From assembly GCF_003991155.1 (NCBI RefSeq), contig NZ_CP031293.1: DNA of 64,000 bases; one strand, given 5' to 3'. The stretch is from Escherichia coli. Its GTDB lineage: Bacteria; Pseudomonadota; Gammaproteobacteria; Enterobacterales; Enterobacteriaceae. Shown piece by piece: positions 9,899 through 61,498 of the stretch. The position numbers and the translations under genes are program-made. The notes under the pieces are model-generated. The model searched no databases and had not been told where the DNA came from. It saw only the letters and a program-made list of their open reading frames with translations. Position 1 is the stretch's first letter. Each line of letters begins with the position of its first letter.

Positions 9899-9974
9899 TG
9901 GTGGCCCCTGCTGGACTTGAACCAGCGACCAAGCGATTATGAGTCGCCTGCTCTAACCACTGAGCTAAGGGGCC
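9899..9974 (-). tRNA. ileX: tRNA with CAU anticodon, consistent with tRNA-Ile2 (lysidine-modified)
   Basis: Reverse complement reads GGCCCCTTAGCTCAGTGGTTAGAGCAGGCGACTCATAATCGCTTGGTCGCTGGTTCAAGTCCAGCAGGGGCCACCA: cloverleaf, CAU anticodon, encoded CCA. Confidence 0.85.
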
Positions 9975-31605: not shown

Positions 31606-31694
31606 CCGGAAAGCGCTTCACAGTTCTCGCGTTGTGCCGGATAGACCTATTGACGCTGTTGTTTTTTCAACCTAAAGTAAAGGAACAAGGGTAA

Positions 31695-31830
31695 GGGAGG
31701 ATTTCTCCCCCCTCTGATGAGTTGTTAGTAAGTCGGGAAACTTAACAGTAACAACACAACCAGTATGATGACGAACTTCATCATAACCCTTTCCTTCTAT
31801 AAGGCCCCTTCCTCGGGAGGGGCTTTCCCG
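31695..31830 (+). ncRNA. sib: Sib-type antisense RNA (type I antitoxin) overlapping the ibs toxin ORF; ends at hairpin gcccct-tcctcggg-aggggc + ttt
   Basis: Fully antisense to the 19-codon ibs ORF; terminator-like hairpin at 31806-31825; location between hldE and yqiK matches the known sibD/sibE locus; exact ends not determinable by eye. Confidence 0.5.
31725..31784 (-). CDS. ibs: Ibs-family type I toxin, 19-aa hydrophobic peptide MMKFVIILVVLLLLSFPTY
   Basis: Manual translation of minus strand; ATG-ATG start, 19 hydrophobic codons, TAA stop; too short for the ORF track. Confidence 0.75.
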   Translation of the reverse strand: MMKFVIILVVLLLLSFPTY

Positions 31831-40494: not shown

Positions 40495-40700
40495 GCTTAT
40501 TCTCAGGGCGGGGCGAAATTCCCCACCGGCGGTAAATCAACTCAGTTGAAAGCCCGCGAGCGCTTTGGGTGCGAACTCAAAGGACAGCAGATCCGGTGTA
40601 ATTCCGGGGCCGACGGTTAGAGTCCGGATGGGAGAGAGTAACGATTCTGTCGGGCATGGACCCGCTCACGTTATTTTGGCTATATGCCGCCACTCCTAAG
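40495..40700 (+). promoter_or_regulatory. FMN riboswitch (RFN element) in ribB leader
   Basis: Conserved RFN core ...agggcggggcgaaattccccaccggcggtaaatcaactcagttgaaagcccgcgagcgctttgggtgcgaactcaaaggacagcagatccggtgtaattccggggccgacggttagagtccggatgggagagagtaacg... upstream of ribB. Confidence 0.85.
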
Positions 40701-55981: not shown

Positions 55982-56464
55982 ATGACAAACCTGACACTGG
56001 ATGTAAACATTATCGATTTCCCATCAATACCTGTGGCGATGTTGCCGCACCGCTGTAGCCCTGAATTGCTCAACTACAGCGTGGCGAAATTTATCATGTG
56101 GCGTAAAGAGACGGGGCTTTCTCCTGTTAACCAAAGCCAGACTTTTGGCGTCGCCTGGGACGACCCTGCCACCACCGCACCGGAAGCGTTTCGCTTTGAT
56201 ATCTGCGGCAGCGTTAGCGAACCGATTCCCGATAATCGTTATGGTGTGAGCAATGGTGAACTTACCGGTGGACGTTATGCCGTGGCCCGCCACGTTGGCG
56301 AGCTGGACGATATTTCACACACGGTATGGGGCATCATTCGCCACTGGCTGCCTGCAAGCGGCGAGAAAATGCGTAAAGCACCGATTCTGTTTCACTACAC
56401 CAATCTTGCCGAAGGGGTGACAGAGCAGCGACTGGAAACGGATGTTTATGTGCCGTTGGCGTGA
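55982..56464 (+). CDS. ygiV: GyrI-like small-molecule-binding domain protein YgiV
   Basis: 160 aa; position between ygiW and mqsR. Confidence 0.8.
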   Translation: MTNLTLDVNIIDFPSIPVAMLPHRCSPELLNYSVAKFIMWRKETGLSPVNQSQTFGVAWDDPATTAPEAFRFDICGSVSEPIPDNRYGVSNGELTGGRYAVARHVGELDDISHTVWGIIRHWLPASGEKMRKAPILFHYTNLAEGVTEQRLETDVYVPLA

Positions 56465-56594
56465 TGCCTGACTCCAGCTTCCCTTATAAATTCCTGCTTC
56501 AAACTGGCGCTACTAATGCGCCACTTTCTTATATGGTCAATCACTTTCCTTAAAGAATACGTTTTGTGTGGTCACTATCTCCGTACATCTAACT

Positions 56595-56640
56595 AACCTT
56601 TTAGGTGCTTTTTCATTGCTGTAATTAACCTTTTAGGTTA
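56595..56640 (+). promoter_or_regulatory. Two MqsA operator palindromes (aaccttttaggt, taaccttttaggtta) in mqsRA promoter
   Basis: Two copies of ACCT-N4-AGGT palindrome 20 bp apart, 30-75 bp upstream of mqsR. Confidence 0.8.
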
Positions 56641-56668
56641 TAACTAAAGTAACAGGGAGGCGGGGGTT

Positions 56669-56965
56669 ATGGAAAAACGCACACCACATACACGTTTGAG
56701 TCAGGTTAAAAAACTTGTCAATGCCGGGCAAGTTCGTACAACACGTAGTGCCCTGTTAAATGCAGATGAGTTAGGTTTGGATTTTGATGGTATGTGTAAT
56801 GTTATCATTGGATTATCAGAGAGCGACTTTTATAAAAGCATGACCACCTACTCTGATCATACTATCTGGCAGGATGTTTACAGACCCAGGCTTGTTACAG
56901 GCCAGGTTTATCTTAAAATTACGGTAATTCATGACGTACTGATCGTCTCGTTTAAGGAGAAGTAA
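56669..56965 (+). CDS. mqsR: mRNA interferase toxin MqsR
   Basis: 98 aa MEKRTPHTRLSQVKKLVNAGQVRTTRSALLNADELGLDFDGM... Confidence 0.93.
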   Translation: MEKRTPHTRLSQVKKLVNAGQVRTTRSALLNADELGLDFDGMCNVIIGLSESDFYKSMTTYSDHTIWQDVYRPRLVTGQVYLKITVIHDVLIVSFKEK

Positions 56966-56966
56966 T

Positions 56967-57362
56967 ATGAAATGTCCGGTTTGCCACCAGGGAGAAATGG
57001 TTTCTGGCATTAAAGATATTCCATACACCTTCCGTGGACGAAAAACAGTATTGAAAGGTATCCACGGTTTATATTGTGTCCATTGCGAAGAGAGCATCAT
57101 GAATAAAGAAGAGTCAGATGCTTTCATGGCGCAAGTAAAGGCATTTCGGGCTTCGGTGAATGCCGAAACAGTGGCACCTGAATTTATAGTGAAGGTTCGA
57201 AAAAAGCTCTCTCTTACCCAAAAAGAGGCAAGCGAAATTTTTGGGGGAGGTGTAAATGCGTTTTCGCGTTACGAAAAAGGCAATGCCCAACCTCATCCTT
57301 CCACAATCAAACTTTTACGTGTTCTGGATAAGCATCCAGAACTATTGAATGAAATCCGTTAA
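56967..57362 (+). CDS. mqsA: Antitoxin / helix-turn-helix regulator MqsA (zinc-ribbon N-terminus)
   Basis: 131 aa MKCPVCHQGEMVSGIKDIPYTFRGRKTVLKGIHGLYCVHCEES... Confidence 0.93.
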   Translation: MKCPVCHQGEMVSGIKDIPYTFRGRKTVLKGIHGLYCVHCEESIMNKEESDAFMAQVKAFRASVNAETVAPEFIVKVRKKLSLTQKEASEIFGGGVNAFSRYEKGNAQPHPSTIKLLRVLDKHPELLNEIR

Positions 57363-57494
57363 TTAATGGAAAAGCGGGGGCAACTCGCTTTTTTCTTTAC
57401 CGGAGTGTGAGCCAAATCACTCGCGATAAGTTTGAGCGAACAATGCCACAGGCGTATTGTTGTTGGGCTTATAATTTCTCCGGTAAGGAATACC

Positions 57495-59102
57495 ATGTAT
57501 ACGCGAAATTTATTATGGCTGGTCAGCCTGGTAAGTGCGGCTCCTCTCTACGCTGCTGACGTTCCCGCCAACACACCGCTCGCCCCGCAACAAGTCTTTC
57601 GTTACAACAATCATAGCGACCCAGGTACGCTCGACCCGCAAAAGGTGGAGGAGAATACTGCCGCGCAGATTGTGCTGGATCTGTTTGAAGGTCTGGTATG
57701 GATGGACGGTGAAGGCCAGGTGCAGCCCGCTCAGGCTGAACGCTGGGAGATACTGGACGGCGGCAAGCGCTATATTTTCCATCTGCGTAGCGGTTTGCAG
57801 TGGTCCGACGGTCAGCCTCTGACGGCAGAGGATTTTGTCCTCGGCTGGCAGCGCGCGGTTGACCCGAAAACGGCAAGCCCTTTTGCTGGCTATCTGGCAC
57901 AGGCGCACATTAACAATGCCGCAGCTATTGTTGCGGGTAAAGCAGATGTTACATCGCTGGGTGTCAAAGCGACGGATGATCGTACTCTTGAAGTTACGCT
58001 TGAGCAGCCGGTTCCTTGGTTCACGACGATGCTCGCCTGGCCGACGCTGTTCCCGGTTCCTCATCATGTCATCGCTAAACATGGCGATAGCTGGAGTAAG
58101 CCAGAGAACATGGTTTACAACGGTGCCTTTGTGCTTGATCAGTGGGTAGTTAACGAAAAGATTACTGCACGCAAAAATCCAAAGTACCGCGATGCGCAAC
58201 ATACAGTATTGCAACAGGTTGAGTATCTGGCGCTAGATAATTCGGTCACCGGCTATAACCGCTATCGCGCGGGAGAGGTCGATCTCACCTGGGTTCCGGC
58301 GCAGCAAATTCCCGCCATTGAAAAATCACTGCCTGGCGAGCTACGAATTATTCCGCGTCTGAACAGCGAATATTACAACTTCAACCTTGAGAAACCGCCA
58401 TTTAACGATGTGCGAGTGCGTCGGGCGCTATATCTTACGGTTGATCGACAGCTTATTGCGCAAAAGGTACTGGGGTTGAGAACGCCCGCAACCACGCTGA
58501 CGCCGCCAGAGGTAAAAGGCTTTAGCGCGACGACGTTCGATGAACTGCAAAAGCCAATGAGTGAGCGCGTCGCGATGGCAAAAGCCTTGCTGAAACAGGC
58601 GGGATACGACGCCTCTCATCCGCTACGCTTTGAGCTGTTCTACAACAAGTACGATCTGCATGAAAAGACCGCGATAGCGTTGTCTTCCGAATGGAAAAAA
58701 TGGCTGGGTGCACAGGTGACGCTGCGCACAATGGAGTGGAAAACCTATCTTGATGCCCGACGAGCCGGTGATTTCATGCTGTCTCGGCAGTCGTGGGATG
58801 CGACGTACAATGATGCTTCCAGCTTCCTGAACACGCTCAAAAGCGATAGTGAAGAAAACGTCGGTCACTGGAAAAATGCGCAGTATGACGCCTTACTAAA
58901 CCAGGCCACGCAGATCACTGATGCGACAAAGCGTAATGCGTTGTATCAGCAGGCAGAAGTGATCATCAACCAACAGGCACCGCTGATTCCTATCTACTAT
59001 CAGCCGTTAATCAAACTGCTTAAACCCTACGTTGGCGGTTTTCCGCTGCATAATCCCCAGGATTATGTCTACAGCAAAGAGTTGTATATCAAGGCACATT
59101 GA
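57495..59102 (+). CDS. ygiS: Periplasmic solute-binding protein (family 5, oligopeptide-binding-like) YgiS
   Basis: 535 aa from MYTRNLLWLVSLVSAAPLYA; ORF track start at 57432 is an extension. Confidence 0.85.
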   Translation: MYTRNLLWLVSLVSAAPLYAADVPANTPLAPQQVFRYNNHSDPGTLDPQKVEENTAAQIVLDLFEGLVWMDGEGQVQPAQAERWEILDGGKRYIFHLRSGLQWSDGQPLTAEDFVLGWQRAVDPKTASPFAGYLAQAHINNAAAIVAGKADVTSLGVKATDDRTLEVTLEQPVPWFTTMLAWPTLFPVPHHVIAKHGDSWSKPENMVYNGAFVLDQWVVNEKITARKNPKYRDAQHTVLQQVEYLALDNSVTGYNRYRAGEVDLTWVPAQQIPAIEKSLPGELRIIPRLNSEYYNFNLEKPPFNDVRVRRALYLTVDRQLIAQKVLGLRTPATTLTPPEVKGFSATTFDELQKPMSERVAMAKALLKQAGYDASHPLRFELFYNKYDLHEKTAIALSSEWKKWLGAQVTLRTMEWKTYLDARRAGDFMLSRQSWDATYNDASSFLNTLKSDSEENVGHWKNAQYDALLNQATQITDATKRNALYQQAEVIINQQAPLIPIYYQPLIKLLKPYVGGFPLHNPQDYVYSKELYIKAH

Positions 59103-59239: not shown

Positions 59240-61498
59240 ATGAGCGATATGGCAGAGCGCCTTGCGCTACATGAATTTACGGAAAACGCCTACTTAAACT
59301 ACTCCATGTACGTGATCATGGACCGTGCGTTGCCGTTTATTGGTGATGGTCTGAAACCTGTTCAGCGCCGCATTGTGTATGCGATGTCTGAACTGGGCCT
59401 GAATGCCAGCGCCAAATTTAAAAAATCGGCCCGTACCGTCGGTGACGTACTGGGTAAATACCATCCGCACGGCGATATCGCCTGTTATGAAGCGATGGTC
59501 CTGATGGCGCAACCGTTCTCTTACCGTTATCCGCTGGTTGATGGTCAGGGGAACTGGGGCGCGCCGGACGATCCGAAATCGTTCGCGGCAATGCGTTACA
59601 CCGAATCCCGGTTGTCGAAATATTCCGAGCTGCTATTGAGCGAGCTGGGGCAGGGGACGGCTGACTGGGTGCCAAACTTCGACGGCACTTTGCAGGAGCC
59701 GAAAATGCTACCTGCCCGTCTGCCAAACATTTTGCTTAACGGCACCACCGGTATTGCCGTCGGCATGGCGACCGATATTCCACCGCATAACCTGCGTGAA
59801 GTGGCTCAGGCGGCAATCGCATTAATCGACCAGCCGAAAACCACGCTCGATCAGCTGCTGGATATCGTGCAGGGGCCGGATTATCCGACTGAAGCGGAAA
59901 TTATCACTTCGCGCGCCGAGATCCGTAAAATCTACGAGAACGGACGTGGTTCAGTGCGTATGCGCGCGGTGTGGAAGAAAGAAGATGGCGCGGTGGTTAT
60001 CAGCGCATTGCCGCATCAGGTTTCAGGTGCGCGCGTACTGGAGCAAATTGCTGCGCAAATGCGCAACAAAAAGCTGCCGATGGTTGACGATCTGCGCGAT
60101 GAATCTGACCACGAGAACCCGACCCGCCTGGTGATTGTGCCGCGTTCCAACCGCGTGGATATGGATCAGGTGATGAACCACCTCTTCGCTACCACCGATC
60201 TGGAAAAGAGCTATCGTATTAACCTTAATATGATCGGTCTGGATGGTCGTCCGGCGGTGAAAAACCTGCTGGAAATCCTCTCCGAATGGCTGGTGTTCCG
60301 CCGCGATACCGTGCGCCGCCGACTGAACTATCGTCTGGAGAAAGTCCTCAAGCGCCTGCATATCCTCGAAGGTTTGCTGGTGGCGTTTCTCAATATCGAC
60401 GAAGTGATTGAGATCATTCGTAATGAAGATGAACCGAAACCGGCGCTGATGTCGCGGTTTGGCCTTACGGAAACCCAGGCGGAAGCGATCCTCGAACTGA
60501 AACTGCGTCATCTTGCCAAACTGGAAGAGATGAAGATTCGCGGTGAGCAGAGTGAACTGGAAAAAGAGCGCGACCAGTTGCAGGGCATTTTGGCTTCCGA
60601 GCGTAAAATGAATAACCTGCTGAAGAAAGAACTGCAGGCAGACGCGCAAGCCTACGGTGACGATCGTCGTTCGCCGTTGCAGGAACGCGAAGAAGCGAAA
60701 GCGATGAGCGAGCACGACATGCTGCCGTCTGAACCTGTCACCATTGTGCTGTCGCAGATGGGCTGGGTACGCAGCGCTAAAGGCCATGATATCGACGCGC
60801 CGGGCCTGAATTATAAAGCGGGTGATAGCTTCAAAGCGGCGGTGAAAGGTAAGAGCAACCAACCGGTAGTGTTTGTTGATTCCACCGGTCGTAGCTATGC
60901 CATTGACCCGATTACGCTGCCGTCGGCGCGTGGTCAGGGCGAGCCGCTCACCGGCAAATTAACGTTGCCGCCTGGGGCGACCGTTGACCATATGCTGATG
61001 GAAAGCGACGATCAGAAACTGCTGATGGCTTCCGATGCGGGTTACGGTTTCGTCTGCACCTTTAACGATCTGGTGGCGCGTAACCGTGCAGGTAAGGCTT
61101 TGATCACCTTACCGGAAAATGCCCATGTTATGCCGCCGGTGGTGATTGAAGATGCTTCCGATATGCTGCTGGCAATCACTCAGGCAGGCCGTATGTTGAT
61201 GTTCCCGGTAAGTGATCTGCCGCAGCTGTCGAAGGGCAAAGGCAACAAGATTATCAACATTCCATCGGCAGAAGCCGCGCGTGGAGAAGATGGTCTGGCG
61301 CAATTGTACGTTCTGCCGCCGCAAAGCACGCTGACCATTCATGTTGGGAAACGCAAAATTAAACTGCGCCCGGAAGAGTTACAGAAAGTCACTGGCGAAC
61401 GTGGACGCCGCGGTACGTTGATGCGCGGTTTGCAGCGTATCGATCGTGTTGAGATCGACTCTCCTCGCCGTGCCAGCAGCGGTGATAGCGAAGAGTAA
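59240..61498 (+). CDS. parC: DNA topoisomerase IV subunit A
   Basis: 752 aa [32 protein letters not shown]... Confidence 0.97.

Follow-up and report, generated by a model that had tools for sequence, protein, structure and literature searches.

The question raised by this locus is whether a two-gene operon on an E. coli chromosome represents a known toxin-antitoxin system or a new one, and what its setting reveals about a physiological role that is disputed in the literature, where MqsRA has been variously described as a stress regulator, an addiction module and a phage defence. The operon lies in the window, the whole stretch of 64,000 nucleotides that was analysed, which is the E. coli chromosome around qseBC-ygiW-ygiV-mqsRA-ygiS-parC. 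The evidence indicates, with a probability of about 0.97, that the operon at 56669-57362 is the canonical chromosomal mqsRA type II toxin-antitoxin system of E. coli (b3022/b3021, formerly ygiU/ygiT), identical in sequence to that of K-12. The locus is an already known and much-studied system; to name it so is correct annotation and no discovery.

Both proteins are identical over their full length to proteins of solved structure. MqsR matches chain B of 3HI2 (crystallised E. coli MqsR, "motility quorum-sensing regulator MqsR") at 98 of 98 residues, and MqsA matches 2KZ8_A and 3GN5_A/3O9X (MqsA/YgiT) at 131 of 131. The sequence-only reading had called the locus a known MqsR-MqsA system, not to be taken for something novel, and had proposed protein alignment as the check; the complete identity to the E. 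coli structures, together with Pfam scores far above the cut-offs, bears it out. MqsR covers the whole of profile PF15723 (120.1 bits, E = 5.5e-35; cut-off 26.2), the only Pfam match of the toxin, and an NCBIfam search found no model matching MqsR. MqsA matches PF15731 over residues 1-131 (188.3 bits, E = 7e-56; cut-off 30), as well as TIGR03830 (146.7 bits) and TIGR03831, and its residues 76-117 give a match to HTH_3 below the threshold (20.4 bits; cut-off 23). Residues K56, Q68, Y81 and K96 of MqsR, defined as toxicity residues by alanine scanning (PMC2791442), are all in place. The same is true of the CxxC...CxxC zinc ligands C3, C6, C37 and C40 in MqsA's N-terminal domain (PMC2791442) and of the DNA-contact residues N97 and R101 in its C-terminal HTH-XRE domain (PMC5422877). 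Every sequence-level defining feature of MqsRA that was checked is present.

The DNA agrees with the proteins. Many E. coli chromosomes match the segment 56400-57500 at 100% identity and show the RefSeq gene order ygiV, mqsR, mqsA, ygiS; in over 2,200 complete E. coli genomes, RefSeq names the identical DNA mqsR/mqsA. Compared with K-12 MqsR/MqsA (PDB 3HI2, 3GN5, 3O9X, 2KZ8), the window has the same proteins in the same order, the same 1-nt gap, the same ACCT-TTT-AGGT pair and the same ygiV and ygiS flanks, with no difference within the cassette that carries them. The toxin gene comes first, as had been noted from the sequence, and the stated gap of 1 bp is exact: the stop codon TAA of mqsR occupies 56963-56965, and just one base, the T at 56966, separates it from the ATG of mqsA, which begins at 56967. 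A search of Rfam over 54-60 kb at E <= 1 returned zero matches, so there is no known RNA element in or beside the operon. The features of the locus are collected in Table 1.

Table 1. Coordinates of the mqsRA locus and its control elements in the window
Feature	Position	Strand	Basis and remarks
mqsRA accessory cassette, 927 bp	56467-57393		Alignment to empty-site alleles; holds hairpin, promoter/operators, mqsR, mqsA and terminator
Terminator-like hairpin, TGGCGC-loop-GCGCCA with T-rich tail	56505-56533	+	Terminator scan; left end of cassette, downstream of ygiV
Operator palindrome 1, ACCT-TTT-AGGT	56596-56606		Motif search; left arm extends to TAACCT, right arm AGGTGC
Likely pRA promoter	56616-56644	+	-35 TTGCTG (56616-56621), 17-nt spacer, -10 TATAAC (56639-56644); putative hexamers read from the sequence
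Operator palindrome 2, TAACCT-TTT-AGGTTA, perfect over 15 bp	56626-56640		Core ACCTTTTAGGT at 56628-56638
mqsR ribosome-binding site, GGGAGG	56655-56660	+	8 nt ahead of ATG; direct sequence reading
mqsR	56669-56965	+	98-aa RelE-like endoribonuclease toxin; PDB identity and PF15723
Tentative pA2 -10, TG-T-TATCAT, extended -10 type	56800-56808	+	Positional arithmetic only; predicted start near 56816
Sigma-70 match TTGTTA-16-TAAAAT within mqsR, probable pA1	56892-56919	+	Predicted start near 56927
mqsA ribosome-binding site, AAGGAG	56954-56959	+	Within the last mqsR codons
mqsA	56967-57362	+	131-aa antitoxin and repressor; PDB identity and PF15731
Operon intrinsic terminator, hairpin AAAAGCGGG-loop-CTCGCTTTT followed by T run	57370-57397	+	RNA fold; right end of cassette

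The sequence-only reading had further singled out mqsRA, among the modules of the window, as the one most clearly of a defence or stress type. To that statement a footnote applies: a type I Ibs/Sib toxin-antitoxin locus is also present, at ~31.65-31.80 kb. The window has only one Sib/Ibs copy, at ~31.7 kb, where K-12 carries tandem sibD/sibE at the corresponding place, and for this reason the DNA may not be that of MG1655 itself.

Among other toxin-first systems with an HTH-XRE antitoxin, HigBA is the closest in outline. Like MqsRA, such systems encode the toxin first and combine a RelE-superfamily RNase with an XRE-type HTH antitoxin. Unlike their antitoxins, MqsA carries a zinc-binding domain at its N terminus and is folded over its whole length, and MqsR, unlike HigBA-type toxins, cuts at GCU without the ribosome and acts as an anti-repressor instead of a co-repressor (PMC4803016, PMC5422877). 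HigBA was rejected for this locus on the grounds that the toxin matches PF15723 only and that the similarity of MqsA to HigA-2 is confined to the HTH (residues 63-130, E = 4.6e-4).

The promoter region contains two operator palindromes, as had been read from the sequence, but with a different spacer from the one then proposed. The motif was given as ACCT-N4-AGGT, which has zero matches across the whole 64-kb window. ACCT-N3-AGGT has exactly two, both ACCTTTTAGGT (56596-56606 and 56628-56638), against 0.55 expected from shuffled sequences. The two sites are 32 bp apart, at distances of 73 and 41 nt ahead of the start codon of mqsR, and both form part of a 17-nt direct repeat, TAAYTAACCTTTTAGGT. 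They differ in quality: palindrome 1 is perfect over its 11-bp core only, whereas palindrome 2 has no mismatch to AACCTNNNAGGTT. The 3-nt spacer is that of the published site, given for E. coli as "two identical palindromes" of the form 5'-ACCT(N)3AGGT (PMC5422877) and, in another paper, as 5'-AACCT(N)3AGGTT, occurring as a pair of palindromes in p-mqsRA (PMC4894380). Elsewhere in the window there is a single operator near-match, at 60362 with one mismatch, which is at chance level.

The arrangement of the operators around the likely pRA promoter suggests how repression would work. The consensus promoter scan demands a T at position 6 of the -10 hexamer and missed pRA because its putative -10 does not end in T; pRA was assigned by eye and by comparison with relatives. 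On the reading TTGCTG-17-TATAAC, the spacer is taken up by palindrome 2, whose arm also covers the first two bases of the -10. An MqsA dimer bound to a site so placed would block RNA polymerase at pRA and so repress transcription. Repression of pRA by MqsA has been measured, with activity rising from ~111 to 369 AU in an mqsRA deletion and restored in trans (PMC6918082).

With mqsR ahead of mqsA, surplus antitoxin would need a source other than pRA alone, and a pA1-like site within mqsR would supply it. The same scan found just one promoter-like match in 56400-57520, the sigma-70 match TTGTTA-16-TAAAAT inside mqsR. A sigma-70 promoter, pA1, has been described inside the mqsR ORF, where it drives mqsA from a start site 8 nt downstream; a second start site lies 111 nt upstream of the pA1 start and has its own promoter, pA2, 8 nt upstream (PMC6918082). 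The two internal promoters are described as constitutive, as free of autoregulation and as stronger than pRA in its repressed state (PMC6918082). Applied to the window, these distances place the pA1 start at 56919 + 8 = 56927 and, 111 nt before it, the pA2 start at ~56816. The scan match is the probable pA1, an antitoxin-only promoter. We infer the pRA hexamers and the pA1 and pA2 assignments jointly from the sequence and the distances in PMC6918082.

Growth arrest by GCU cleavage, neutralisation of the toxin and repression of pRA have been shown for the identical proteins and promoter (PMC2791442, PMC4905990, PMC6918082). MqsR is reported to cleave single-stranded RNA, chiefly at 5'-GCU and without needing the ribosome (PMC4905990, PMC4803016); the structure paper argued for ribosome dependence, a point contested at that time (PMC2791442). 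As a small RelE-fold endoribonuclease, MqsR would shut down translation through GCU cleavage. MqsA is described as folded throughout, with a zinc domain that neutralises MqsR and an HTH domain that dimerises and binds DNA (PMC4803016, PMC2791442). In this operon the two-domain, fully folded antitoxin would bind and neutralise MqsR through the zinc domain formed with C3, C6, C37 and C40, and would dimerise through the HTH-XRE domain to bind the two ACCT-N3-AGGT palindromes. [quoted passage not shown] The target triplet itself is sparse in the operon RNA, with one GCU in mqsR (56890) and three in mqsA (57120, 57150 and 57206), but shuffled sequences average 3.5 +/- 1.7 and 4.6 +/- 2.0, respectively, and the depletion is not significant. 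It is mild at best and partly an effect of low GC, and no claim is based on it.

Comparison with E. coli alleles that lack the operon shows that mqsRA is a self-contained, low-GC indel of 927 bp with its own promoter, its own operators and flanking terminator-like hairpins. Its GC content of 41.1% is below that of the window (51%) and of the genes on either side (52-53%). Against the empty-site alleles L003 and L002, homology is lost at 56466/56467, two bases past the ygiV stop codon, and regained at 57393/57394; in the empty sites ~5 unrelated nucleotides (AAGAA or GGGAA) replace the cassette. Alignment of the junctions revealed no target-site duplication, recombinase footprint or recombinase gene at the cassette ends. 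The RNA of the left hairpin folds at -10.9 kcal/mol (z -2.6), and the hairpin probably shields the mqsRA promoter from read-through out of ygiV. At the right end, the RNA of 57356-57400 folds at -14 kcal/mol (z -3.6), and only one of 200 shuffled sequences folds as well.

A strong, unannotated hairpin of 98 nt is found in the ygiS leader (57393-57490), and the end of the cassette falls at its base. In a covariation comparison limited to just four E. coli alleles, the outer stem of this hairpin is invariant.

The cassette is an accessory element of the species. Of 5,426 complete E. coli genomes, 2,282 (~42%) carry it at a threshold of at least 80% coverage, in every case chromosomally and with at least 99% identity, and it is cleanly absent from the remaining ~58%. 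All chromosomal copies sit at one locus, with no sign of ongoing mobility. The empty sites are of two kinds: ygiV-ygiS-parC, as in L003, and ygiV-parC, as in L002, in which ygiS is also replaced. Given that ygiS is intact in 4,052 genomes, at least ~1,770 genomes have ygiS but lack mqsRA. In one strain, an IS1 element is inserted into mqsR.

More distant relatives are carried on plasmids. A sensitive DNA search of plasmids recovered mqsRA homologues in Rahnella, Rouxiella, Pectobacterium, Yersinia, Herbaspirillum and others, and these align to mqsRA within the coding region only. In the five that were examined, protein identity is 60-68% for MqsR and 51-67% for MqsA, and all five have the toxin gene first with a gap of 1-2 nt. 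Two exact ACCT-N3-AGGT sites, 31-34 bp apart, are found in three of the five. The Yersinia plasmid has a variant palindrome, TACCCTTTTAGGGTA, in which both arms are changed symmetrically (ACCC/GGGT), and in Pectobacterium an additional small ORF separates the operators from mqsR. Four of the five relatives (L004, L005, L007 and L008) have a proximal palindrome that is followed immediately by TATAAT (AGGTTATAAT or GGGTATAAT). Because this paired-palindrome footprint recurs in promoters that otherwise do not align, it lends independent support to the operator role of the palindromes and to the putative -10 of pRA. The plasmid family resembles the E. coli operon in the length of MqsR (98 aa) and MqsA (131-133 aa), in gene order, in the gap, in the paired palindromes and in the abutment of the proximal one on the -10. 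It differs in its protein identity of 51-68% and in its neighbours, which are often antirestriction (ardA) or DUF905, DUF932 or DUF4942 genes, in contrast to the chromosomal slot between ygiV and ygiS.

What the cassette does for its host is a separate matter from what it is. The plasmid neighbourhoods, with ardA, DUF905, DUF932 and DUF4942 beside the homologues, are one of several observations that would suit a selfish addiction or anti-phage module, acting by post-segregational toxicity or by defence of the abortive-infection or persistence type, and not a host regulator. A discrete low-GC indel that is polymorphic for presence and absence at a single site is consistent with such a module, as is the protection against phage T2 afforded by a three-gene variant, MqsRAC (PMC9519451). 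However, no PADLOC model calls mqsRA: PADLOC reported no defence system here, and MqsA gave only weak HTH-level matches to RmrA, with no matches for MqsR, ygiS or ygiV. A tblastn search with MqsR against 50,697 phage records found no homologue, and the confinement of nearly identical chromosomal copies to one locus also speaks against a module of this kind. On balance, an addiction or anti-phage function for the cassette is possible but doubtful. It is extremely improbable that the locus is itself the tripartite MqsRAC toxin-antitoxin-chaperone phage-defence system. MqsRAC is found in certain E. coli strains, C496_10 among them, and contains a toxin and antitoxin pair homologous to that in the window, but neutralisation of its toxin depends on a SecB-like chaperone, MqsC, and the system defends against phage T2 (Vassallo et al. 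2022, PMC9519451). The gene after mqsA in the window is ygiS, which encodes a 535-aa family-5 periplasmic solute-binding protein and no SecB-like chaperone (PF00496, SBP_bac_5; NF007287 equivalog at 1293 bits) and which lies beyond the operon terminator, outside the cassette. Moreover, the 131-aa MqsA is identical to the chaperone-independent K-12 protein. MqsRAC was rejected for want of a SecB-like MqsC gene, and the operon is the two-gene form.

The position of ygiS directly downstream of mqsA counts in favour of a rival reading centred on host regulation. According to papers from the discovering laboratories (PMC4894380, PMC4905990; summarised in PMC4803016), the main job of MqsRA would be global regulation of stress and biofilm: MqsA represses rpoS, csgD and cspD through palindromes like those of mqsRA, and Lon degrades MqsA under stress, freeing MqsR to degrade mRNAs selectively, including that of ygiS. 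[quoted passage not shown] The genomic evidence points the same way, since a cassette missing in ~58% of complete genomes fits poorly with a core regulator, and at least ~1,770 genomes keep ygiS without mqsRA. Within the window, the sole other operator near-match does not exceed chance. It seems unlikely that stress and biofilm regulation is the main role of the locus. The accessory distribution fits an addiction or defence-type element better than a core regulator, but it proves neither. A more elaborate proposal joins these observations: the cassette would have been acquired horizontally and have landed at the base of the ygiS-leader hairpin, its real value would lie in addiction or phage defence and not in stress regulation, and the hairpin could be a cis-regulatory RNA not described before, or else a target for recombination. 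Taken as a whole, this proposal is quite improbable.

The value of identifying the operon as canonical mqsRA is mainly that of a correct negative: this is a textbook toxin-antitoxin locus and should be filed as such. For annotation, the MqsA operator has a spacer of 3 nt, not 4, and the probable antitoxin-only promoters within mqsR would mean that transcription of mqsR and mqsA is uncoupled. Finally, the accessory status of the cassette and the frequent occurrence of ygiS without mqsRA bear on the disputed claims that MqsRA acts through ygiS as a core stress regulator of E. coli.

The ygiV-parC interval of E. coli exists as three haplotypes, carrying mqsRA together with ygiS, ygiS alone or neither, as revealed by comparison of the 927-bp mqsRA cassette (56467-57393) with two cassette-free loci (L003, ygiV-ygiS-parC; L002, ygiV-parC). 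The haplotype with both mqsRA and ygiS accounts for ~42% of genomes. In the haplotype that lacks both, 236 bp of unrelated DNA (L002, 2696-2931) stands in place of ygiS, flanked by the first ~22 nt and the last ~42 nt of that gene. The replacement DNA has no match in Rfam.

The leader of ygiS folds into a long imperfect hairpin, the base of which coincides with the exact right edge of the mqsRA cassette. The RNA of this region (57388-57497) has a minimum free energy of -38.9 kcal/mol (z -4.95), and none of 200 shuffled sequences folded equally well. The AAGGAA directly 5' of the ygiS ATG (57495) forms the end of the 3' arm. The hairpin, which likewise matches no Rfam family, is retained in strains without mqsRA and also in one strain without ygiS. 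It could serve as a translational control element or be a recombination hotspot.

Elsewhere in the window, a Sib antisense RNA opposite a 19-aa Ibs-type hydrophobic ORF constitutes the second toxin-antitoxin module, a type I system. Only one Sib/Ibs copy is found here; K-12 presumably carries tandem sibD/sibE at the equivalent locus. The FMN riboswitch and the tRNA-Met gene are ordinary features. The extended operator, the longer form of the MqsA-binding palindrome upstream of mqsR, has a sole other near-match within the window; this site is probably meaningless, because the number of such matches (3 found versus 1.26 expected) is at chance level.

Coordinates of features in the window
Feature	Position	Strand	Basis or detail
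Long imperfect hairpin, ygiS leader	57393-57490	+	RNA fold
Sib antisense RNA	31650-31799	+	RF00113, 142 bits
Ibs-type hydrophobic ORF, 19 aa, MMKFVIILVVLLLLSFPTY	31784-31725	-	Opposite Sib RNA
FMN riboswitch	40495-40643	+	RF00050, 121 bits
tRNA-Met (CAT) gene	9899-9974	-	
Near-match ATCCTCGAAGGTT to extended operator AACCTNNNAGGTT	60362-60374	+	1 mismatch

Homologues of mqsRA on plasmids (L004, L005, L006 and L008) adjoin antirestriction genes (ArdA and others) and genes encoding DUF905, DUF932, DUF4942 and DUF5983, a gene set typical of leading-region or anti-defence neighbourhoods. In the Pectobacterium copy, an additional 75-aa ORF separates the operators from mqsR. Finally, mqsR is split by an IS1 element in the chromosome of E. 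coli strain 203740 (NZ_CP025913.1, 417502-419460; cassette match H1). This strain is a natural toxin knockout in which mqsA is still intact.
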